Made by a program: the position numbers and the translations under genes. A DNA stretch of 64,000 bases from Thermoanaerobaculia bacterium (GTDB lineage: Bacteria > Acidobacteriota > Thermoanaerobaculia > UBA5066). Positions within the stretch are counted from its first letter, which is position 1, and every line of letters starts with the position of its first letter. Below are positions 1 through 54,226 of the stretch, piece by piece. Below the pieces are notes generated by a model, which ran no database searches, was not told where the DNA came from, and was given only the letters and a program-made list of their open reading frames with translations. The stretch lies in NCBI GenBank assembly GCA_038245905.1, contig JBBRRY010000013.1, positions 7,876-71,875 of the forward strand, written 5' to 3'.

Positions 1-141
1 GCGGAGGCGAAGGCCTACATCAGCGATCCCGACCGCGTCACGAAGGCGCTCCGCGACCACGTCTGGTCGCTCGGCAACGACTTCCTGACGGTGCCCCAGG
101 CGCCGAAAAAGCGGGCGACGACTGTCGTCGCGTCGCACTGA
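1..141 (+). CDS. 3' end of an upstream CDS cut by the window edge (product unknown)
   Basis: Frame 1 is open from nt 1 to TGA at 139-141 (…AYISDPDRVTKALRDHVWSLGNDFLTVPQAPKKRATTVVASH*). Only 46 aa are visible, so no family assignment is possible. Confidence 0.3.
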   Translation, partial: AEAKAYISDPDRVTKALRDHVWSLGNDFLTVPQAPKKRATTVVASH

Positions 142-153
142 ATAGGAAGACCC

Positions 154-918
154 GTGCGCTTCGTGCACGCGTCACTGCTTCTCGGATCGTTATTTTTTTT
201 CTTAGAAGGAAAAAGGGGAGAAGCGGATGCTCCCTCTTCACCTTTTAGGAAATCCTCCAGCGCCGCTGCCCCCGCTGCGAAGCAGGAGGCAAGAGACGGG
301 GTCTTCGGCAAAGTCTCTCTCTCCGGTCCCGTCCCGAAGCTCGCGGCTCGGCCCGTGAACGCGGACGCCGCCGTGTGCGGGCGCACCGACCGCCCAAGCC
401 CGTCGCTCGTCCTCTCGAAGGACAAGGGCCTCGCGAACGCCGTCGTGTGGCTGGAAGGAGCGAAGGGCCTCGCGCCGCCGAAGGGCCCGTTCCGGCTCGA
501 CCAGAAGAACTGCCTCTTCGCGCCTTACGTGCAGATCGTGTCGAAGGGCGCGCCGGTCGTGTTCGGCAACTCCGACGCGGTCCTACACAACGTCCATGCC
601 GCCACGGCGGGCTCGGCGCTGATCTTCAACAAGGCGATCCCGACCAAGGGACAGACGTTCACGGAGACGTTCACCGAACCGGGTCTCGTGCGCGTGAAGT
701 GCGACATCCACACGTGGATGACGGCATGGCTGTTCGTGGCCGACACGCCGTACGCGGCGGTGACCGACGCGGAGGGCCGCTACGCGTTTCACGGCGTTTC
801 GCAGGGCACCTACCCGCTCCACGCGTGGCACGAGCTCCTGGGCGAGAAGATCCGGTCCGTCGTCGTGCCCGCGAACGGCGTCGCGCGGGCCGACGTCACG
901 CTGTCACTGGCGGATTGA
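154..918 (+). CDS. secreted cupredoxin-like (type-1 copper motif) protein with a C-terminal carboxypeptidase-regulatory-like (Ig-like) domain
   Basis: GTG start with a hydrophobic N-terminus (ASLLLGSLFFFL). It has HNVH…KCDIHTWM, i.e. amicyanin-type Cys-x2-His-x2-Met spacing, and a C-terminal DAEGRYAFHGVSQGTY CarbopepD_reg-like motif. It is a paralogue of the CDS at 53381..54226 (shared DKGLANxxV, KCDxHxWM and DGxYxxxxLPxGTY motifs). Confidence 0.55.
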   Translation: MRFVHASLLLGSLFFFLEGKRGEADAPSSPFRKSSSAAAPAAKQEARDGVFGKVSLSGPVPKLAARPVNADAAVCGRTDRPSPSLVLSKDKGLANAVVWLEGAKGLAPPKGPFRLDQKNCLFAPYVQIVSKGAPVVFGNSDAVLHNVHAATAGSALIFNKAIPTKGQTFTETFTEPGLVRVKCDIHTWMTAWLFVADTPYAAVTDAEGRYAFHGVSQGTYPLHAWHELLGEKIRSVVVPANGVARADVTLSLAD

Positions 919-1479
919 CCGGCTGAATTCCGCGACGAAGGAGCGGGCTTCCGGCTTGCTCCAGTCGGCCGCTCCCACGAGCTGCTTCACGATCTCGCCG
1001 GACGGCGCGATGAAGAACGTTTCGGGATACCCGGTCACGCCGTAGCGGCCGGCAATCGTGCCCTTCGGGTCCAGGGCGACCGGCAGGCCCGCGATTCCGT
1101 GGTCCTTCAGCCACGTGTCGACGACGTTCCAATCCTCGTCCACCGAGACGGCCAGGAAGTCGACGCGCGTGTCGCCCTTTATGTCGGCGACGAATTTCAC
1201 GAGCTCGGGCATCTCGGCGCGGCAGGGAGCGCACCACGTCGCCCAGAAGTGCAGGATCAGCCCCTTGCCGGCCTGTGCGGCGAGATCGCGGCGGGCGCCG
1301 TTCCTTTCGAGGACGAGTTGCGGCCCCGCGGGAACGGTGCGCTTCGCGGCGGTCGCCTGCGCCCGGCCGGGCACGGGTGTGGCCGGCTGAATCAGCGCAT
1401 CCTTCGCGAAGAAGGCGGCCACCGCGGCCGCGAGAGCCGCAGCGACGAGGACGGCGGTCGTGCGCTTCGAGTCGCTCAT
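904..1479 (-). CDS. TlpA/ResA-like periplasmic thiol:disulfide oxidoreductase (thioredoxin fold)
   Basis: WCAPC active site (…LILHFWATWCAPCRAEMPEL…) and an N-terminal membrane anchor (TTAVLVAAALAAAVAAFFA). The ATG at 1479 was chosen over the long R-rich upstream extension. It overlaps the upstream gene's stop (ATGA). Confidence 0.75.
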   Translation of the reverse strand: MSDSKRTTAVLVAAALAAAVAAFFAKDALIQPATPVPGRAQATAAKRTVPAGPQLVLERNGARRDLAAQAGKGLILHFWATWCAPCRAEMPELVKFVADIKGDTRVDFLAVSVDEDWNVVDTWLKDHGIAGLPVALDPKGTIAGRYGVTGYPETFFIAPSGEIVKQLVGAADWSKPEARSFVAEFSRSIRQ

Positions 1480-2321
1480 GCGCGTGCCGCGCTGCTGGTG
1501 GGGAGAGTCATGGGCTCGGACAGGATACCGAGTCGCGAAAGTGGCCAATCGTAGACGACGGGGTCTTCGGGATTCAGAAGGCGCAGCCAGCCTGTCGCCT
1601 CTCGCGACGCGGCGAGGTCCGCGGTCCTGCGGCGCGTGAGACCGATCCGGCGCGAGATGCGGTGCACGTGGACGTCCATCGGCAGGAGGAGGCGCGCGGG
1701 CGTGAAGCGCCCTCCCGTCCAGAGGCCGAGGTCGAAACCCTCCGTCCGGATCATCCAGCGGAGGAACAGGTGCGAGCGCTTGCACGCGGAGCCGGAGGAG
1801 GGGGAGGGGAGAAGAAAACGCACGCCGCGAGAGATTGGCTTCGGAGAGGAGGAGAAATTCAAGAGATTTCTTTGAAAGGAAGAAAGGGCGGCGACGTAGT
1901 CCTCGCCGCCGGCGCATTCTTCGTCGCCCGCCGCGAACAGGGCGCCCAGAGACCCGTGCGTCTCCCGAGCTCTCTTCACCATTCTAAGAAAATCTTCGAC
2001 GTCCGACCCTGTCACCCACCGATGCACGAAACGCTTCAGCGCCGGGATGTGTCTCTCGTCCCACCCTTCGAGGAATTCCGATGGCCTCGGTCCCAGCACC
2101 GCGAGAACGCGCGAGACCGAGGTCTGGATCGACGCGACGCGGCCGAACGCGAGGGAGGCCGAGAGAAACGCGACGACCTCGCGATCCGCCGAATCGGGGA
2201 ACTGGTGGGCAAAGACGAGCGGGTCCGAATCGAGGCGGCGGGAGCGCCACTCGCTCCTGAGAGCCTCGAGGCGCTCGCCGAGGAGGGTGAGGTCCCGGGG
2301 GCCGCCCGTGCGCCGTCTCAT
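1476..2321 (-). CDS. conserved hypothetical protein, probably the DUF2400/TIGR02757 family
   Basis: An ORF with real codon structure (not R-rich), about 281 aa, translationally coupled to the tlpA-like gene. The family assignment is from memory of family motifs (…FAHQF…VAFLSASLAFGRV…) and is uncertain. Confidence 0.4.
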   Translation of the reverse strand: MRRRTGGPRDLTLLGERLEALRSEWRSRRLDSDPLVFAHQFPDSADREVVAFLSASLAFGRVASIQTSVSRVLAVLGPRPSEFLEGWDERHIPALKRFVHRWVTGSDVEDFLRMVKRARETHGSLGALFAAGDEECAGGEDYVAALSSFQRNLLNFSSSPKPISRGVRFLLPSPSSGSACKRSHLFLRWMIRTEGFDLGLWTGGRFTPARLLLPMDVHVHRISRRIGLTRRRTADLAASREATGWLRLLNPEDPVVYDWPLSRLGILSEPMTLPTSSAARA

Positions 2322-2344: not shown

Positions 2345-3499
2345 GTGAGCCCGCGACGCCCCGGCAAGGAGGCTCCTCCTCCGCCCGAAAAAAAACCCGA
2401 CTCGAGCCGGACGATTCTCGTCGGCGTCTACGGGCGCGAGATCCCGAAGGAAATGGCCGAGGACCAGCTCGACGAGCTGGAGCGCCTCGTCGAGACGGCG
2501 GGCGGCCGGGTCGTCGCGCGCGCGCTCCAGGAGCGCCGCGGGCCCGACCCCGCCACGTACGTCGGCTCGGGCAAGGTCGAGGAGATCGCCGAGGCGGCGC
2601 GCGCCCAGAACGTCGGCTGGACGGTCTTCGACGACGAGCTCACGCCCACGCAGGCGCGGAATCTCGACGAGAAGCTGCCGACGCAGGTGCTCGACCGCGC
2701 GGGCGTCATCCTGCGCATCTTCGCGGCCCGCGCGCGCTCCCGGGAAGCCATGACGCAGGTCGAGCTCGCGCGGCTCCAGTACGAGCTTCCGCGCCTCGCG
2801 GGGCCGGCTCATGGCCTCGCCCAGCAGCGGGGCGGCGGCGCGTTCCGGGGCGGCGCGGGTGAGCGCAAGATCGAGCTGGACCGCCGCCGCGTGCGCACGC
2901 GGATCGCGCGGCTCAAGGAAGACCTCAAGGCGATCGAGACGCAGCGCGACGTGAGGCGGAAGGGGCTCAAGCGCGTCGCGACAGTCTCGCTCGTCGGCTA
3001 TACGAACGCGGGAAAGACGACTCTTTTCAATCGCCTCACGGCGTCGAAAGAGTTCGCCGAAGACCGCCTCTTCGCCACGCTCGACCCGAGGCACGCGCGG
3101 CTCCACGGCGTCGGCGGGCGCGCGATCGTGCTCGCCGACACGGTCGGCTTCCTCCGCAAGCTCCCGCACACGCTCGTGGCGTCGTTCAAGTCCACTCTCG
3201 CCGAGGTCAAGGACGCGGACCTTCTCGTCCACGTCGTGGACGCGTCTTCCCTGCAGGCGTCCGAACAGCGGGCTGTTGCCGAGGAAGTGATCGCGGGCTT
3301 CGGAGTGGAGAAGAGACGCATCCTCCTCGCATACAACAAGACGGACCGCCCGCATGCGGGCGCGCTCGACGCTGACGCCATCCGGATCTCCGCCGCCACA
3401 GGAGAGGGCCTCCCGGAGCTCAAGGAGGCGATCGTCGCGCGGCTGACGGCTCTCGGCTCCAGGATGCCGTTCTACGGATCCGGGAATGACGCCGGCTGA
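2345..3499 (+). CDS. hflX: GTPase HflX
   Basis: It has the HflX N-terminal domain (…RTILVGVY…VFDDELTPTQARNLDE…ILRIFAARA…) followed by a GTPase G-domain (GYTNAGKTTLFNRLT, DTVGF, NKTD). GTG start. Confidence 0.85.
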   Translation: MSPRRPGKEAPPPPEKKPDSSRTILVGVYGREIPKEMAEDQLDELERLVETAGGRVVARALQERRGPDPATYVGSGKVEEIAEAARAQNVGWTVFDDELTPTQARNLDEKLPTQVLDRAGVILRIFAARARSREAMTQVELARLQYELPRLAGPAHGLAQQRGGGAFRGGAGERKIELDRRRVRTRIARLKEDLKAIETQRDVRRKGLKRVATVSLVGYTNAGKTTLFNRLTASKEFAEDRLFATLDPRHARLHGVGGRAIVLADTVGFLRKLPHTLVASFKSTLAEVKDADLLVHVVDASSLQASEQRAVAEEVIAGFGVEKRRILLAYNKTDRPHAGALDADAIRISAATGEGLPELKEAIVARLTALGSRMPFYGSGNDAG

Positions 3500-11799: not shown

Positions 11800-12813
11800 A
11801 TGACTAAGATCGGGACGCAGCTCCATCGATTTCTCTTCGAGACCGAACGGCAGATCCCGCAGGCGACGGGCGAGCTTTCGGCGCTCCTCTCGCAGCTCGC
11901 ATTCGCCGGCAAGAGGATCAGCCGCATCCTGTCCTCGGCCGGCCTGACGGACGTCCTCGGTGCGTCCGGGGAGATCAACGTCCAGGGCGAGCAGCAGCAG
12001 AAGCTCGACGCGCTCGCGAACGAGATCTTCCTCGATGCCTTCGCCTACGGCCAGCTCGTCCCGACCGTCGTCACGGAGGAAATGGACCTTCCGGCCCACC
12101 TCCCGGAGAACGTCGAATCCGGCAAGTACATCGTCTTCCTCGACCCGCTCGACGGCTCCTCGAATCTCGACGTGAACGCCGGTGTCGGGTCGATCTTTTC
12201 GGTGAGGCGCCTCTCCGGACGCGGCGAGGTGAAGTCCGAAACCGAGCTCATGGCCCGCATCTCTCAGGAGCAGGTCGTTGCGGGCTACTTCCTGTATGGC
12301 CCGTCCACGACGCTCGTCTACACGGAGGGGCGCACGGTCCACGGCTTCACCTTGGATCCCGGCATCGGTGAGTTCCTCCTCTCGCACCACGAGATCCGCA
12401 TCCCGGACCACGGGCCGTATTACGGCGCGAACGAGGGCACCGTGCACGACTGGGAGAGCGGACCGCGCCGATTCCTCGAGTGGGTGCGCGAGAGCGACCC
12501 CGCGACGGGGCGCCCGTACTCGACGCGCTACTCGGGCGCGCTCGTGTCGGACTTTCACCGCATCGTTCTCAAGGGTGGGATCTACATGTATCCGGCTACC
12601 GGGAAGAGCCCGAAGGGAAAGATCCGTCTCATGTACGAGGCGGCCCCGCTCGCGCTCGTCGCCGAGGCCGCGGGCGGCGCTGCCAGCGACGGCCGGCGGC
12701 GCATCCTCGACATCCACCCCACGCGGAACCACGAGAGGACGCCGATCTACCTGGGCTCGAAGGGTGACGTGGCGCGTGTCGACGCGTACGTCGCCTCCGC
12801 GGGCCCGCGATAG
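11800..12813 (+). CDS. fbp: fructose-1,6-bisphosphatase class I
   Basis: …FLDPLDGSSNLDVN… and …YMYPA…GKLRLMYEAAP… FBPase motifs. Confidence 0.85.
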   Translation: MTKIGTQLHRFLFETERQIPQATGELSALLSQLAFAGKRISRILSSAGLTDVLGASGEINVQGEQQQKLDALANEIFLDAFAYGQLVPTVVTEEMDLPAHLPENVESGKYIVFLDPLDGSSNLDVNAGVGSIFSVRRLSGRGEVKSETELMARISQEQVVAGYFLYGPSTTLVYTEGRTVHGFTLDPGIGEFLLSHHEIRIPDHGPYYGANEGTVHDWESGPRRFLEWVRESDPATGRPYSTRYSGALVSDFHRIVLKGGIYMYPATGKSPKGKIRLMYEAAPLALVAEAAGGAASDGRRRILDIHPTRNHERTPIYLGSKGDVARVDAYVASAGPR

Positions 12814-48272: not shown

Positions 48273-49802
48273 CTACTTCGCCGGCTGCATGAGCTGCCAG
48301 TTGCCGGTACCGCCTACATTCGGATTGAAGCCCGCGTCGTTGGAGTGCTGGTACCCGCCCTGACCGTCCGTCCAGTGGTACTTCTCGGTGTAGGCGTGCT
48401 CGGAGGTTCCGTAGTAGGGGTCCTGCATGCGCTCGGTGCCGCGGATGTACTGCGAGAAGGAGTCGCTCGTGTGCTGAGCGCTCCGGTTCGCCGCCTGCCG
48501 CTGCGCGTCCATCGAGGCGATCATGGAGTCGTTGTTCGCGCTGATCTGCCGGCTGAGGGCGCCCGCCGCGGCGATCCGCGAGTAGCCCGCGGCCAGGTTG
48601 CGCTCGAATTGCGCCGTCAGCTGGTTCTGCACCTGCTGTCGCCTTTGGTCCCACACGGGGTCGTGCTGGATCGAGGACATCATGTAGCCGAGGAGAGGAT
48701 GCAGGCTGTCTAGCTGCCCGTCCCGCGCGCCCATGCTGTGCACGTAACCGAGGACGCGGTGGTTTTCATACGAGGTGCCCTGCGGGCCGTGGTAGGGGAT
48801 GCGGTTCGGGTGCGAGAGCAGCAGGAAGAAATCCTCGTCGATCGGGTGCCCGTTCAGCGTGTAGCGCACGCGCGCCGCGAGCGACTCGCCCGCGAAGGGA
48901 GGCTTGTGGAGGGCCGCAGCGAGGTTGCCGATCGGCCTCATCCCGACGATCCTGAGGTTCTGCGCTCTCCCGCGGTAGCGGCCGATCACGAACGATCGCA
49001 TCGCCTCGGTGGCCGTGATGCCGGGCCGGTGGATCATCCCGAGCGTCTTGCCGCCGACGCTTACCGAACGGTCCGCGGGCTCGGTCCAGTAGAAACATTC
49101 GGCGGGAAACGTCTCGAGCCACGCCGAGCCGTCGGCGGCGGCGAATCGCGAGCCCACCTGCACGGGCCAGCTCGTGGCCGAATAGTTCCAGACGACGTTG
49201 CTCGTCGCGGTCCACCCATCCGGCACGGCGACCGTGCTCACGCGGAGCCCGCCCTGAGTCTTGTCCACGATCGCGTAAGGATGAAAGGTCGTGCGGGAAA
49301 AGCGCTGCGCGATCTGGCTGAAGAGACCCGCGGGGGCGGAGCGAGGCGCCGGCTGCGCCTTGCCCGCCTGGGCGCCGGGCGCGTTCCACCTCATCTGGTA
49401 CAGCATCACGTAGACGACGACTCCCGTCACGGAGACGTAGAGCCAGATCGGGAGCGTCCAACGCGCGAGGCGCCGGTGCTTCTCGAACCGGCCGCGCCAC
49501 GCGAGCGAGAACGTCACGACGGCCATCGGGGCGACGGCGGCGGCGAGGACCGTGTGCGTGAGGAGGATGCCGAGGTAAAGCGTGCGCGCGCCGCCCGTCC
49601 CGGGAAACCGGACGCTTCCCACCCGCGCGTGGTACGTGAGATAGCTCGCGAGGAAGAGCGTCGAACAGGTGAATGCGGCAATCATGACGCGGCGGTGGGC
49701 GTCTCTCCGGCCCGAGCGGATGAGGACCCAGCCGACGGCGAGGAGAACGGCGCTCGTCGCGTTCAGGCAGGCGTTCAGCGTAGGCAGGTCGCGGACGGTC
49801 AC
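48273..49802 (-). CDS. CtaM/DUF420 four-helix membrane domain fused to a ~370-aa C-terminal domain of unknown function with a Gln/Asn/Tyr/His/Ser-rich tail
   Basis: GTG at 49802 (GTGA overlap with the permease stop). The N-terminal 140 aa have four TM helices matching DUF420 (…LNACLNATSAVLLAVGWVLIRS…HRRVMIAAFTCSTLFLASYLTYH…). The same frame then continues without a stop through an Ala/Pro/Gln linker into a soluble domain ending …YYGTSEHAYTEKYHWTDGQGGYQHSNDAGFNPNVGGTGNWQLMQPAK. Confidence 0.6.
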   Translation of the reverse strand: MTVRDLPTLNACLNATSAVLLAVGWVLIRSGRRDAHRRVMIAAFTCSTLFLASYLTYHARVGSVRFPGTGGARTLYLGILLTHTVLAAAVAPMAVVTFSLAWRGRFEKHRRLARWTLPIWLYVSVTGVVVYVMLYQMRWNAPGAQAGKAQPAPRSAPAGLFSQIAQRFSRTTFHPYAIVDKTQGGLRVSTVAVPDGWTATSNVVWNYSATSWPVQVGSRFAAADGSAWLETFPAECFYWTEPADRSVSVGGKTLGMIHRPGITATEAMRSFVIGRYRGRAQNLRIVGMRPIGNLAAALHKPPFAGESLAARVRYTLNGHPIDEDFFLLLSHPNRIPYHGPQGTSYENHRVLGYVHSMGARDGQLDSLHPLLGYMMSSIQHDPVWDQRRQQVQNQLTAQFERNLAAGYSRIAAAGALSRQISANNDSMIASMDAQRQAANRSAQHTSDSFSQYIRGTERMQDPYYGTSEHAYTEKYHWTDGQGGYQHSNDAGFNPNVGGTGNWQLMQPAK

Positions 49803-50581
49803 GTGTCCTCCGGGGAGCGCGGCAGTTCCGGCCGGCCGGCGGGTCCCGCGGGAAAGCGCGCGACGGCGGCGACGGCGGCCCCGAACGTCACGACGGCGAA
49901 AGCGATCGTCACGGCGAAGGAAAGCGCGGGGGACGTCCACGAGGGCACGGCGCCGCCGAGCGCGCGGCGGAGCGCCGCGACCCCGTACGTGAGCGGGTTC
50001 ACGGCCATCGCCGCGCGGAGCCATGCGGGAGCGCCGTCGACGGGAAAGAAGGCGCCCGAGAGCAGCCACATCGGGATCAGGAAAAGATTCATGATCGCGT
50101 GGAATCCCTGGGTCGACTCGAGGCACCATGCGATCGCGAACCCGAGCGCCGTGAGCGCGAAGGCGAGCACGACGAGAAGCGCGGCGGCGGTGAGGAGTCC
50201 CGCCGCGTCGGCCTTCAGGCCGGCCACGGGCACGAGGACGAGGAGCGGAAGCCCCTGGATCAGGCCGAGCACCGCGCCGCCGAGGACCTTTCCGAGCGCG
50301 ATCGAGGACGGAGCGACGGGAGACACGAGGACGCCCTGGAGGAAGCCTTCGCGCCGGTCCTCGATGACGGAGATCGTGGCGAAGATCGCCGCGAAGAGGA
50401 CGACGAGGACGACTGTCCCCGGAAAGAAGTAGCCGAACGAGTCCTCGCGGAGGGACCCCTTGAAGCCGGCCCCCACGAGAACCCACATGACGAGCGGCGG
50501 GGCGACCGCGCCGACGACGCGGCTCTTCTGCCTCAGGAAGCGGACGATCTCGCGGCGCGCGAGGGCGAGAGAAGCGCTCAT
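49799..50581 (-). CDS. ABC-2 type transporter permease
   Basis: Six TM helices and an ABC-2 signature region (…LIPMWLLSGAFFP…NPLTY…). It overlaps the ATPase gene by 4 nt. Confidence 0.8.
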   Translation of the reverse strand: MSASLALARREIVRFLRQKSRVVGAVAPPLVMWVLVGAGFKGSLREDSFGYFFPGTVVLVVLFAAIFATISVIEDRREGFLQGVLVSPVAPSSIALGKVLGGAVLGLIQGLPLLVLVPVAGLKADAAGLLTAAALLVVLAFALTALGFAIAWCLESTQGFHAIMNLFLIPMWLLSGAFFPVDGAPAWLRAAMAVNPLTYGVAALRRALGGAVPSWTSPALSFAVTIAFAVVTFGAAVAAVARFPAGPAGRPELPRSPEDT

Positions 50582-51528
50582 GCCGCGTCCTCTTCGCGGA
50601 AGCGGCGCCCGGTCTTCGCGATGAAGACGTCCTCGAGCGAGGGCGCGCCGAGCGTCACGGACTTGAACGCGCCCGGGAACGCTTCGACGAGGCGCGGGAC
50701 GAACGTGTGCGCGGCCGGCCGCTCGACTCTCACAGTGGGCCCGACCACCGTGATCCGCCCTGCCTCGGCGCCGAAACGGCTTCCGATCGCGACCGCGAGG
50801 GCGGGCGCGCCGGTCTCGTCCTTCGCCTCCACCGTCACGACGTCGCCGCCCACGGTCGCCTTCAGCGCGGCGGGCGTGTCGAGCGCGAGGAGCCGCCCGC
50901 GGTCGAGGATTCCGATGCGGTGCGCGGCCTCGGCCTCCTCGAAGAGGTGGGTCGTCAGGAGCACCGCCGTGCCCCCGCGGGCCAGAGAGCCGAGCAGCCC
51001 GACGAGATCGCGCCGCGCGCCCGGGTCGAGGCCCGTCGACGGCTCGTCGAGGAGGAGCACGGGCGGAGCGTGGAGGAGCGCCTTGGCGATCTCGACGCGG
51101 CGCGCGAGGCCGCCTGAGAGAGTCTCGACGAGATCGCCGGCGCGATCCTCGAGGCCGAAGGTCGCGAGAAGCTCGCCGATCTTCGTCCGAAGGGGCGGGC
51201 CCGAAAGAGAGTAGAGCGCTGCCTGCAAGGTGAGGTTCTCCTCGACGGTCAGCTTCTTGTCGAGGCTGGGCGCCTGAAAGACGACGCCGAGGTGCCGGCG
51301 CACGTCGCGGCCGGCCGACGCGGGATCGAGCCCGTCGATCGAAAAGCTCCCGGCGCCGGGCGGCAGCAGCGTCGCGAGGATCCGGAACAGCGTGGTCTTG
51401 CCGCCGCCGTTCGGGCCGAGGAGCGCGAAGATTTCGCCGCGCGCGACGGAGAACGTGACGTCGGCGAGCGCGGCGCGCGCCCCGAAAGAGCGGGAGAGGG
51501 AGCGGGCTTCGACGGCGGGAGGCGTCAC
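50578..51528 (-). CDS. ABC transporter ATP-binding protein
   Basis: Walker A GPNGGGKTT, signature LSGGLARRVEIAKAL, Walker B LLLDEPSTGLD. Confidence 0.9.
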   Translation of the reverse strand: MTPPAVEARSLSRSFGARAALADVTFSVARGEIFALLGPNGGGKTTLFRILATLLPPGAGSFSIDGLDPASAGRDVRRHLGVVFQAPSLDKKLTVEENLTLQAALYSLSGPPLRTKIGELLATFGLEDRAGDLVETLSGGLARRVEIAKALLHAPPVLLLDEPSTGLDPGARRDLVGLLGSLARGGTAVLLTTHLFEEAEAAHRIGILDRGRLLALDTPAALKATVGGDVVTVEAKDETGAPALAVAIGSRFGAEAGRITVVGPTVRVERPAAHTFVPRLVEAFPGAFKSVTLGAPSLEDVFIAKTGRRFREEDAA

Positions 51529-51553: not shown

Positions 51554-52435
51554 TCAGACGCGGTCGAGGACGAGGAGGACGAGGATCGCCGGCAGCCATC
51601 CGATCGACGCCAGGAAGAGCGAGCGCGCGTGGCCGTCCGAGATGTCCCTTGCGAACCTCAGCGAGGACGCCAGGAACAGGAGGGTCATCACGAACGCCCC
51701 AAAGGCGTACGCGAACCCCGCCGTGCCGACGAGAGACGGCAGGAGGCTGACGGGCAGGAGGATGGCCGTCCAGAGGAGGGTCTGGCGGGCGGTGCTGCGC
51801 CCGGTCGGGTCGACGACGGGCAGGATGACGACGCCCGCCTTCGCGTAGTCGACACGGTGGCGCCACCCGATCGCGAAGAAGTGCGGCAGCTGCCAGACGA
51901 ACAGGATCGCGAAGAGCGCGAGCCCGGGCAGGCCGAGTGCGCCCGCCGCGGCCGTGTACCCGCCGAGCGGCGGCAGCGCGCCGGGGATCGCGCCGACGAT
52001 GGTCGAGGCCGGCGAGCGCGTCTTCATCGGGGTGTACATGCAGACGTACGAGACGAGCGTGAACGCGGCGAGCGCGGTCGTGATCCCGTTCGTGAAAAGG
52101 AGGAGCTCGACGAGGCCGACGACTGAGAGCGCGCCGGCGAAGAGCGCCGCGCCCGCCATCGGGAGGCGACCCGACGGGAGCGGACGGGCGGCGGTCCGCT
52201 CCATCCGGCCGTCGAGATCCTTCTCCCAGACCTGGTTGAAGGCGCTCGTCCCGGATGCGACGAACGCCGTCCCGGCGAGGGTGTGGAGGAGCAGCGCGGC
52301 GTCCATGCCCGAGAGCGGCCCCTTCGTGCCCGCCACGAAGCCCACGAAGGCCGTCATGACGACGAACAGCGTGATGCGCGGCTTCGTGAGCGCGACATAC
52401 GACGACAGGGCGGACGGGTTGCGACGGAGGCTCAT
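51554..52435 (-). CDS. ctaB: protoheme IX farnesyltransferase (heme O synthase)
   Basis: UbiA-family motifs (…YVALTKPRI…, …NQVWEKDLDGRMERT…RPLPSGRL…) across 8-9 TM helices. ATG at 52435; the upstream extension is junk. Confidence 0.85.
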   Translation of the reverse strand: MSLRRNPSALSSYVALTKPRITLFVVMTAFVGFVAGTKGPLSGMDAALLLHTLAGTAFVASGTSAFNQVWEKDLDGRMERTAARPLPSGRLPMAGAALFAGALSVVGLVELLLFTNGITTALAAFTLVSYVCMYTPMKTRSPASTIVGAIPGALPPLGGYTAAAGALGLPGLALFAILFVWQLPHFFAIGWRHRVDYAKAGVVILPVVDPTGRSTARQTLLWTAILLPVSLLPSLVGTAGFAYAFGAFVMTLLFLASSLRFARDISDGHARSLFLASIGWLPAILVLLVLDRV

Positions 52436-53388
52436 GCGCGACGGGCGGAGCTTAGCGCGTTCCCGGGGTTCCGGCAGGCACCGAGGCAGACGAGCGCGAG
52501 GACCCCCGTCACCCAGCACAGGGCTCCGGTGGCGAGGTGGGCGGTCGTGAGGGACGGGGCCTTCCGCGACCAGACGGAGAGCGCGCCCAGGAGCACTTGA
52601 ATCGTGACGAGGCCGGCCCAAAAGGAAGCGGCGATCCCGAAGAGGGGCCGCGAAGGGGAGATCTTTGAAAGGGCGCCTGCGGCGCGAAAGACGAGCAGGA
52701 CGACGACGACGGCTCCGAGCCGGTGGGCGATGTGAATCGGCACGCCGGAAAGAGCCAGATCGGCGGCGGAGGGAAAGAACCCTCCAAAGGAAGTCGGGAA
52801 ATCCGGGATCGCGAGGCCCGCGCCCGTGTGCCGCATGACAGCACCGAGAACGATCTGGATGTAGATCGCGGCGGTGGCGGCGAGCGTCCACCGGAACGCG
52901 CGCATCGCCTCTTCACCCTTCAAAGAAATCCGAAGATTTTCTTCGACCAACTCCCTCCATGTCTTCGAGCACATGAGTGCGACGGCCGCGGTGAGGGCGA
53001 AGACGATCTCGGCGAGGGCGGCGTGCGCGGAGGAGATGGCTGGCGGAAGGAGAAGCAGCACGGTCAGCCCGCCCAGAACCGCCTGAAGCAGGATCGCCAC
53101 GAAGGCGGCCGCAGCGAGCCGCTTGACCGTCTTTCTTCCTTCTAAGAAAAAAAGAATTGCGCCCAGCTCCAGGCCCACCAATGTGGAAACGCCGGCGGCG
53201 ATGAGGCGGTGCCCGTGCTCATACAGGATGCCCCCCACCATGGGAGGCATGACCTTCCCGTAGGAGAGAGGCCAGTCCGGAACGGCGAGGCCCGACTCCG
53301 TGGACGTGACGAGTGCGCCCGCGACGAGAAGCAGGAAGACGCAGACGGCGACCGTCCGCGTTCCGACCCTCAGGAAGGCTTCACGCAC
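52432..53388 (-). CDS. ctaA: heme A synthase (COX15/CtaA)
   Basis: 8 TM helices with conserved His pairs (…YEHGHRLIAAG…, …AVMRHTGAGLA…HIAHRLGA…). ATGA overlap with ctaB. Confidence 0.8.
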   Translation of the reverse strand: MREAFLRVGTRTVAVCVFLLLVAGALVTSTESGLAVPDWPLSYGKVMPPMVGGILYEHGHRLIAAGVSTLVGLELGAILFFLEGRKTVKRLAAAAFVAILLQAVLGGLTVLLLLPPAISSAHAALAEIVFALTAAVALMCSKTWRELVEENLRISLKGEEAMRAFRWTLAATAAIYIQIVLGAVMRHTGAGLAIPDFPTSFGGFFPSAADLALSGVPIHIAHRLGAVVVVLLVFRAAGALSKISPSRPLFGIAASFWAGLVTIQVLLGALSVWSRKAPSLTTAHLATGALCWVTGVLALVCLGACRNPGNALSSARRA

Positions 53389-54226
53389 CGGCCTTGAACG
53401 TGAACGCGGCCGGCTTCGATTCCTGCGCGCCCACCGTGACCTGCTGGGTCTGCGTGCCGAACTTCTCGTGCCACGCCTCGATCGTATAGGTGCCGGCGGG
53501 GAGGTCCTTGATCGTGTACGTGCCGTCCGCCGCCGTGACGGCGAAGAAGGGATGAGAGAGGACGCCGCAGTACGCCGACATCCATCCGTGCACGTCGCAC
53601 TTGATCCGGATCATGACCTCGGGCTTGTCGAACTTCTTCGTGTACTTCATGCCCTTGACCGGCATTCCGAGGTTGAAGGCCTCGTTCTTCTCGGGGAGCG
53701 AGTGAATGTTGTGGAGCGTGTCGTCGCTGTTCAGGATCTCGAGGTTCTGTCCCGCAACCATGCCGAAGACGTGAGGGTGGTATGTGCAGCCCCTCTGGTC
53801 GATCGTGGCAGGTGCGGCGGGAGCGGGATAGGTCCCGTTGATTCCGGATTTCACGTAGACGAAGACATTCGCGAGGCCCTTGTCATTCCCGATGATGATG
53901 TCCTCACGGCTCACGTCTCCCGGATGCAATTTGGCGCAGAAGGCGTCGGCCGACATCTTGAACTTGTCGGCGGCCGGCACGGCCCCCTCGAACACGATCT
54001 TGCCGGTGATGGAAGCCGCGCCCGTCGCCCCGGCGGCGGGACTGGCGACGGAGGAGGCCGCGGGAGCGGACGTCGCGCCGTCGTCTTTCGCCGCGCCCGC
54101 GGCACGGGACGACTTGGGCCGGTCCTCGTCGTCGTCCTTGCCTCCGCAGCCGGTCAGGAGTGCGGTGCCCAGGAGAACAGCGGCCGAGAGGGCGGCAAAA
54201 CGAATTCGAATGGCGGGACCGGTCAT
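53381..54226 (-). CDS. cupredoxin-like lipoprotein with a C-terminal carboxypeptidase-regulatory-like domain (paralogue of 154..918)
   Basis: ATG at 54226 with a GAGGAGG SD, and a lipobox LLTGC. Motifs HNIH…KCDVHGWM (Cys-x2-His-x2-Met) and …DGTYTIKDLPAGTYTIEA…. It is the first gene of the ctaA-ctaB operon and overlaps the ctaA start. Confidence 0.6.
   Translation of the reverse strand: MTGPAIRIRFAALSAAVLLGTALLTGCGGKDDDEDRPKSSRAAGAAKDDGATSAPAASSVASPAAGATGAASITGKIVFEGAVPAADKFKMSADAFCAKLHPGDVSREDIIIGNDKGLANVFVYVKSGINGTYPAPAAPATIDQRGCTYHPHVFGMVAGQNLEILNSDDTLHNIHSLPEKNEAFNLGMPVKGMKYTKKFDKPEVMIRIKCDVHGWMSAYCGVLSHPFFAVTAADGTYTIKDLPAGTYTIEAWHEKFGTQTQQVTVGAQESKPAAFTFKAGA

Follow-up and report, generated by a model that had tools for sequence, protein, structure and literature searches.

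Within a 64,000-nucleotide stretch of DNA (the window; contig JBBRRY010000013.1, positions 7,876 to 71,875), two genes encode proteins in which a cupredoxin domain appears to be nested inside a transthyretin-like (CarboxypepD_reg) domain. The window has a G+C content of 68.9%, and the proteins it matches best come from metagenome-assembled genomes of Thermoanaerobaculia (phylum Acidobacteriota). The two genes, here called copy A and copy B, are listed with their neighbours in Table 1. An earlier note on this DNA had described their products as paralogues that handle copper during the maturation of CuA or of haem-copper oxidase. The paralogy is borne out: the two proteins are 35% identical across 198 amino acids (BLASTP, E 2e-39), which is far beyond chance, and their alignment contains the shared blocks that the note had pointed to (DKGLAN, HN[VI]H, KCD[IV]HxWM and DG.Y....P.GTY). 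As for function, it is argued below that both are probably electron carriers of the respiratory chain.

Table 1. Genes and putative copper-ligand regions around copy A and copy B in the window
Feature	Position	Strand	Remarks
Multihaem cytochrome c gene, 3' end	1..141	+	46 codons and stop; gene cut by the window edge; penultimate gene of its operon
Copy A	154..918	+	254 residues; predicted cupredoxin nested in transthyretin-like domain; N-terminal hydrophobic segment and linker
Copper-ligand region of copy A	586..720	+	H145 (586-588), C183 (700-702), H186 (709-711), M189 (718-720)
Thioredoxin-fold gene	904..1479	-	WCAPC motif; Pfam AhpC-TSA, Redoxin, Thioredoxin; converges on copy A
DUF2400 gene	1476..2321	-	Pfam PF09674, E 8.6e-63; overlaps the start of the thioredoxin gene by 4 nucleotides
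DUF420 (CtaM-like) gene	48273..49802	-	Pfam DUF420, E 7.3e-45, residues 6-134; about 370 extra codons
ABC-2 permease	49799..50581	-	Pfam ABC2_membrane; DrrB-like, below cut-off
ABC transporter ATPase	50578..51528	-	Pfam ABC_tran; DrrA-like, below cut-off
ctaB (haem O synthase, protohaem farnesyltransferase)	51554..52435	-	Pfam UbiA, E 1.4e-47
ctaA (haem A synthase)	52432..53388	-	Pfam COX15-CtaA, E 4.9e-32; start overlaps the end of copy B by 8 nucleotides
Copy B	53381..54226	-	281 residues; ATG start; lipoprotein form with the same predicted domain architecture; first gene of the ctaA-ctaB operon
Copper-ligand region of copy B	53579..53713	-	H172, C210, H213, M216; invariant alignment columns

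Copy A starts with GTG, 12 nucleotides past the stop codon of the upstream gene and behind an AGGAAG Shine-Dalgarno-like motif. On inspection of the sequences, its N-terminal hydrophobic segment is followed by a linker rich in Ala, Ser, Pro and Lys, while copy B carries a lipobox (LLTG-C27) and then a stretch of about 45 residues in which Ala, Ser, Gly and Asp abound. Mature copy A has a single Met, the putative ligand M189, which is also the only Met after the initiator. Its three Cys are the putative ligand C183 and a conserved pair, C75 and C120, which probably form a disulfide. Curated models recognise the CarboxypepD_reg part alone: PF13620 matches the C-terminal part of copy B with 38.4 bits and that of copy A with 29.7 bits (cut-off 32.3). 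The copper domain is hinted at below threshold by PF00127 (E 0.006) and by the amicyanin equivalog TIGR02657 (E 2e-4). Copy A reaches 17.4 bits against the PF00127 gathering score of 21.2, copy B gives no match to PF00127 at E <= 1, and the TIGR02657 score of 21.5 bits compares with a cut-off of 110.2. The family is thus too divergent for the curated PF00127 model.

AlphaFold2 models confirm the expected cupredoxin fold and agree with the domain assignment. The model of copy A (residues 45-254) has a predicted local distance difference test score (pLDDT) of 95.2 and a predicted template modelling score (pTM) of 0.90, and that of the mature part of copy B has a pLDDT of 95.6 and a pTM of 0.92. 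In both, a cupredoxin domain, modelled as a Greek-key beta-sandwich, lies inside a transthyretin-like domain, modelled as a seven-strand sandwich, and both parts match known cupredoxin and transthyretin-like structures. The C-terminal Pfam match spans profile positions 27-82 only; the whole transthyretin-like domain nonetheless aligns structurally. Since the Pfam match is partial and the structural alignment complete, we infer that the cupredoxin is an insertion in the transthyretin-like domain, the first strands of which would come from the N-terminal segment (GKVxxxGxVP ... ANVxVxL).

Both proteins are predicted to bind copper at a type-1 site made of His, Cys, His and Met. When the cupredoxin segment of copy A is used alone, H145, C183, H186 and M189 align onto H53, C92, H95 and M98 of amicyanin, with NSDAVLHNVH facing NREAMPHNVH and KCDIHTWM facing HCTPHPFM. 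A profile of 67 members finds PDB entries 9cck (2e-9), 5fc9 (3.5e-8) and amicyanin (5e-7) with the ligand motifs in register, and these motifs also align with those of 6hbe. Full-length copy B as a single-sequence query against the PDB gives weak transthyretin-like matches only. The quartet is kept in all 110 family representatives, which comprise 108 sequences from clusters at <=50% identity plus copies A and B, so that the amicyanin-type site proposed in the earlier note would be a feature of the family as a whole. The residue following the first His ligand is Asn in 107 of the 110, which is a hallmark of type-1 sites. The C-x2-H-x2-M spacing had been ascribed to amicyanin and pseudoazurin alike. 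It fits amicyanin by direct alignment and does not fit native pseudoazurin, where the spacing is C-x2-H-x4-M; PDB entry 2ux6 is entitled 'pseudoazurin with engineered amicyanin ligand loop'.

Five further residues outside the copper site are conserved at 93-98% (numbering of copy A; counts among the 110 representatives): D184 (108), H148 (103), W225 (104), H226 (102) and E227 (105). D184 adjoins the Cys ligand, and W225-H226-E227 sit in the transthyretin-like domain. The equivalents in copy B are residues 175 (for H148), 211 (for D184) and 252-254. The type-1 site does not account for these residues, which might belong to a second metal site, a docking surface or the domain interface.

Copy A belongs to a Rieske/cytochrome b/octahaem cytochrome c operon that is truncated by the edge of the window. 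Frame 1 of the first 141 bases reads AEAKAYISDPDRVTKALRDHVWSLGNDFLTVPQAPKKRATTVVASH followed by a stop codon, and is nearly identical to the C-termini of cytochromes encoded on two long contigs, L003 and L004. There, orthologues of copy A, 84% and 68% identical to it, close an operon that runs in the order 4Fe-4S protein, HEAT-repeat protein, Rieske protein, cytB(N), cytB(C), a membrane-anchored cytochrome c of about 1040 amino acids, and copy A. The cytochrome has 1042 amino acids and eight CxxCH motifs in L003, and its orthologue in L004 has 1037 amino acids. The operon (L003:2833-9945 and L004:2768-9902) is an unusual one with a split cytochrome b, and the arrangement of Rieske, split cytochrome b and multihaem cytochrome genes is conserved from Thermoanaerobaculia to Ignavibacteria and Omnitrophota. 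Only the 3' end of the cytochrome gene lies inside the window, which is why the operon partners of copy A were missed in the earlier note.

The note had instead paired copy A with the thioredoxin-fold gene downstream, taken to encode a relative of TlpA, the reductant for CuA assembly. The two genes do converge, their 3' ends overlapping by 15 nucleotides, but the association with a biogenesis factor fails here. The thioredoxin gene lies on the opposite strand, and its 4-nucleotide overlap with the DUF2400 gene therefore points to an operon of those two rather than one with copy A; they are predicted to be co-transcribed, separately from copy A, and the arrangement is identical in L003 and L004. 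The link to TlpA fares no better. Against NCBIfam models the protein scores best with ResA (86.9 bits, cut-off 170), followed by TlpA (68.9, cut-off 230) and DsbE (61.5), all below cut-off, and a homologue is found at none of the 80 other family loci, all B-type. TlpA is thus rejected as a specific partner, and the gene product is predicted to be a generic periplasmic thiol:disulfide oxidoreductase of the TlpA/ResA/DsbE family, outside the conserved system. As its gene neighbours that of the octahaem cytochrome, this protein is at least as likely to serve cytochrome c maturation, in the manner of ResA or CcmG, as CuA assembly.

Copy B, as the note had stated, heads the ctaA-ctaB operon. The order is copy B, ctaA, ctaB, ABC ATPase, ABC-2 permease and DUF420 (CtaM-like), and close relatives have the same operon; ctaA and ctaB overlap by 4 nucleotides. 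The pair of ABC genes stands between ctaB and DUF420 in several phyla (L014, L036, L037, L053, L060, L076, L080 and L084). DUF420 proteins of close relatives have 139 amino acids and end in MRW and a stop codon, which is missing in the open reading frame (ORF) of the window. The extension of about 370 codons has gene-like codon bias, with a third-position G+C content (GC3) of 0.90, and shows no Pfam match and no homologue among 84 loci. It is either a lineage-specific C-terminal fusion or read-through into another gene.

The family is large. Copy B has more than 7000 homologues at E 1e-5 (90% clusters), and the family profile collects 5156 clusters at 50% identity (E <= 1e-30), including some giant CarboxypepD_reg repeat proteins; the listed profile matches of 240-290 bits are mostly proteins of 230-300 amino acids with the architecture of A and B, together with some tandem fusions. 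The gene spans more than 10 phyla and occurs in at least 597 species-representative genomes, which include members of Acidobacteriota (Thermoanaerobaculia, Vicinamibacterales), Planctomycetia, Omnitrophota, Ignavibacteria, Kryptoniota, Verrucomicrobiia, Chloroflexota, Binatia, Bacteroidota and Myxococcales. Databases name its products only 'carboxypeptidase regulatory-like domain-containing protein', 'plastocyanin' or hypothetical, and the literature searched contains no description of the family, nor of a cupredoxin combined with or nested in a CarboxypepD_reg domain.

Gene context was compared at 80 species-level loci, all of them B-type (44-87% identical), so that the following counts describe the B clade; neighbours were called by tblastn with defined queries and the remaining ORFs by stricter clustering. 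Among the 67 informative loci, the next gene downstream is ctaA in 32, coxB in 17, coxA in 10, ctaB in two and something else in six. Oxidase or haem-A genes on the same strand follow within 6 kb in 62 of the 67, a link to haem-copper oxidase much stronger than could be known from the window. A divergent coxA-C-D-B operon adjoins the cupredoxin gene in seven further loci, and 17 of 73 loci have a multihaem cytochrome gene immediately upstream. Of the expected companions, ctaA thus recurs and the thioredoxin does not, while Sco (PF02630) is encoded separately in six clusters. Five genomes of Thermoanaerobaculia and Ignavibacteriaceae (L050, L053, L075, L078 and L079) join both gene sets of the window in one continuous super-operon, Fer4-(HEAT)-Rieske-cytB-cytB-MHC-CUP-COX1-COX3-COX4-COX2-CtaA-CtaB, where MHC is the multihaem cytochrome and CUP the cupredoxin gene. 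It is followed by ABC-ABC2-DUF420 in L053 and by DUF420 in L079. A contig of Verrucomicrobiia (L060), which ends just upstream of MHC, keeps the same order from MHC through DUF420, and in Omnitrophota (L037) the order is HEAT-Rieske-cytB-cytB-MHC-CUP-CtaA-CtaB-ABC-ABC2-DUF420, with no structural genes of the oxidase intervening. Of the 38 linked CoxB ORFs, 36 carry the CuA motif and none has CxxCH; a fused cytochrome c domain, as in caa3 enzymes, is therefore missing from the linked oxidases.

Some clusters contain two cupredoxin genes (L019, L033, L081 (tandem), and L060 at 2496-3134 and 12151-12777); as these come from several phyla, duplication as in the window is recurrent. A second CarboxypepD_reg protein, fused to TPR repeats and of about 283 amino acids, is encoded about 5.5 kb downstream of the cupredoxin gene in 24 of the 80 clusters, for instance at L080:15182-16033, and may be another periplasmic component of the respiratory module. 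The type 1.5 CtaA has been listed in Verrucomicrobia, Acidobacteria, Chlorobi, Omnitrophica, NC10 and Planctomycetes (PMC8239418), a range that resembles that of the cupredoxin family and hints at a shared respiratory module. More distant relatives (33-40% identity to copy A, some with a C-x3-H-x2-M loop) sit outside respiratory clusters: one adjoins lgt and a YHS/HMBD copper P-type ATPase (L085:8001-12339), two adjoin desulfoferrodoxin (L086, 7237-8390, and L087), and one lies near an HMA-domain protein (L088:3673-7237). The family may thus have more than one function.

The reading put forward here as probable is that A and B are membrane-tethered type-1 copper electron carriers acting between a bc-type complex and the CuA centre of an aa3-type oxidase. 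An amicyanin-like domain with one copper, held by His, Cys, His and Met, would be inserted in a transthyretin-like beta-sandwich, and the whole protein would hang on a flexible linker of 30-45 residues, with copy B anchored by lipid and copy A by a signal peptide or signal anchor. On the periplasmic side it would be reduced by the octahaem cytochrome that forms part of the Rieske/cytochrome b complex. It would then be oxidised by CuA of an aa3-type oxidase with a subunit II devoid of a cytochrome c domain, thereby taking the role held elsewhere by cytochrome c, plastocyanin or auracyanin. An ancestral single gene may have been duplicated as the cluster split, so that copy A still closes the bc-type operon and copy B still opens the haem-A operon. 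This reading is chosen because of the universally conserved type-1 site, the flexible tether, the gene position at the junction of complex III-like and aa3 gene sets, and the linked oxidases without a cytochrome c domain. The direction of electron flow, the partners, the bound copper and a docking or spacing role of the transthyretin-like domain are predicted.

Several points weigh against it. In 32 loci, as in the case of copy B, the gene comes first in an operon whose other members serve assembly (ctaA, ctaB, DUF420/CtaM) and are not structural genes; an assembly or accessory role would explain this equally well. The eight-haem cytochrome could reduce CuA directly in a supercomplex, which would make a shuttle unnecessary. 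The near-invariant H148, D184 and W225-H226-E227 lie outside the type-1 site and could mark a second function; the geometry of the copper site rests on alignment to solved cupredoxins; and distant relatives occur in other contexts, one of them beside a copper P-type ATPase. Moreover, some cupredoxins of the Cys/His/His/Met type, such as CopI, serve copper tolerance (PMC13308877).

One rival reading, that of the earlier note, is a copper chaperone or maturation factor that helps to build CuA or CuB, perhaps together with the ABC transporter and DUF420/CtaM of the operon. Copy B and 34 of the 67 informative relatives directly precede ctaA or ctaB, DUF420/CtaM usually follows, and active aa3 oxidase requires CtaM (PMC9145763). 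The distant relative of L085, beside lgt and the copper ATPase, points in the same direction, and D184, H148 and W-H-E could form a second site. Known chaperones, however, use Met/His or Cys/Met sites built for metal exchange, whereas the site conserved in every representative is a complete His/Cys/His/Met type-1 centre of the buried type. Neither copy has the PCuAC motif, CxxxC or a His/Met-rich stretch, or matches PCuAC or Sco in Pfam at E <= 1, and some of the same clusters have a Sco gene of their own. Copy A and 17 relatives, besides, share a transcription unit with Rieske, cytochrome b and cytochrome c genes, which need no copper, and the TlpA link is not conserved. A chaperone is therefore considered improbable. 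The conserved site, the gene position, the tether and the missing signatures of PCuAC, Sco and CopI favour electron transfer over the copper handling preferred in the note. Electron transfer explains both proteins better, and the family most likely carries electrons between complexes and does not deliver copper.

Another reading is that of an accessory subunit fixed to the oxidase or to a bc-aa3 supercomplex, which, like AcoP, would dock permanently, here through the transthyretin-like domain, and stabilise or tune the CuA domain, its copper being an extra relay or structural instead of a mobile shuttle. The gene is often the first in coxB-coxA operons, with COX1 or COX2 within 6 kb downstream in 27 of 67 loci, and the near-invariant W-H-E suggests a conserved protein-protein interface. 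Such a subunit is nevertheless unlikely: a long, flexible, low-complexity tether with a lipid anchor is typical of mobile tethered carriers, many genomes have the gene apart from oxidase structural genes, and the two copies in this genome accompany different complexes. The conserved residues D184, H148, H226 and E227 could also form a second metal or substrate site at the domain interface of a redox enzyme or sensor, which the type-1 copper would feed or drain, and the closest neighbours in the PDB by sequence and structure include Nitrosopumilus cupredoxins and NirK-type enzymes. These residues, kept in 102 to 108 of the 110 representatives, fall short of the invariance of the type-1 ligands, the proteins have no partner domain of the kind usual in multicopper enzymes, and the gene context is purely that of the respiratory chain, which makes an enzyme or sensor very improbable.

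The family, standing at the junction of two gene sets, is a concrete and testable candidate for the step from the quinol-oxidising complex to aa3 oxidase. This step is not established for aa3 oxidases without a cytochrome c domain in subunit II in large phyla with mostly uncultured members, such as Acidobacteriota, Planctomycetota, Ignavibacteria and Omnitrophota. The assignment would improve the metabolic annotation of metagenome-assembled genomes and bring a need for copper into models of how soils and sediments respire aerobically; nothing in it overturns known principles. A more far-reaching version can be offered only tentatively: the family could be the missing dedicated carrier of a bc-aa3 module, or a copper relay built into it as a subunit, replacing soluble cytochrome c, with the nested transthyretin-like domain and its W-H-E as a new docking device and perhaps a second function in delivering copper to CuA. 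If so, the module would be common to Acidobacteriota, Planctomycetota, Ignavibacteria, Omnitrophota, Verrucomicrobiota and others.

Several periplasmic copper proteins of respiratory systems invite comparison. PCuAC and CopI are periplasmic and have cupredoxin-like folds; PCuAC and Sco build CuA, and their genes can be linked to those of the oxidase (PMC9145763, PMC13308877). Neither copy matches PCuAC, Sco or CopI in Pfam. The copper motif of PCuAC is H(M)X10MX21HXM (PMC9145763); a regular expression for it finds nothing in either copy, and there is no PCuAC match at E <= 1. CopI has a His/Met-rich internal region and a His-rich N-terminus (PMC13308877), whereas no 20-residue stretch of A or B contains more than three His plus Met, and mature copy A has its single Met. 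Sco/SenC is likewise rejected, as A and B lack CxxxC and have a cupredoxin instead of a thioredoxin fold, and genuine Sco (PF02630) is separate. Amicyanin of Paracoccus shares the C-x2-H-x2-M loop and the P/L-H-N-V-H motif with copy A. A and B are nonetheless not amicyanin proper: their scores are far below the family cut-offs, TIGR02657 included, and their neighbours are Rieske, cytochrome b and cytochrome c genes or cta and cox genes instead of methylamine dehydrogenase (mau) genes. From single-domain cupredoxins of the plastocyanin and pseudoazurin type they differ in the surrounding transthyretin-like domain, the extra conserved Cys pair and the membrane tether, and, unlike amicyanin and plastocyanin types, their gene partners are an octahaem bc-type complex and aa3 oxidase. 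The tethered C-terminal cupredoxin of Thermus scotoductus NirK (6hbe) and the Nitrosopumilus protein 9cck are domains of multicopper enzymes, whereas A and B stand alone and have their cupredoxin nested in a transthyretin-like domain, and 5fc9, a purple Nitrosopumilus cupredoxin, has Arg where the family has its Met ligand.

The tethered carrier proposed here is likened to plastocyanin with b6f, to auracyanin and to AcoP. AcoP of Acidithiobacillus ferrooxidans interacts with cytochrome c and the oxidase (PMC4059628). This single-domain protein, whose copper site is green, occurs only in acidophilic iron oxidisers and aligns with A and B in structure (17-20% identity) but not at the sequence level, whereas the present family combines two nested domains and is found across more than 10 phyla. 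Auracyanin works with alternative complex III (PMC10873879); the auracyanins of Chloroflexi form an azurin-like subfamily without a transthyretin-like domain, and the partner of A and B would be a Rieske/cytochrome b complex instead. A carrier of the blue-copper kind is thus familiar, and what appears to be new is the architecture, a cupredoxin inserted in a transthyretin-like domain, together with its widely conserved genomic role.

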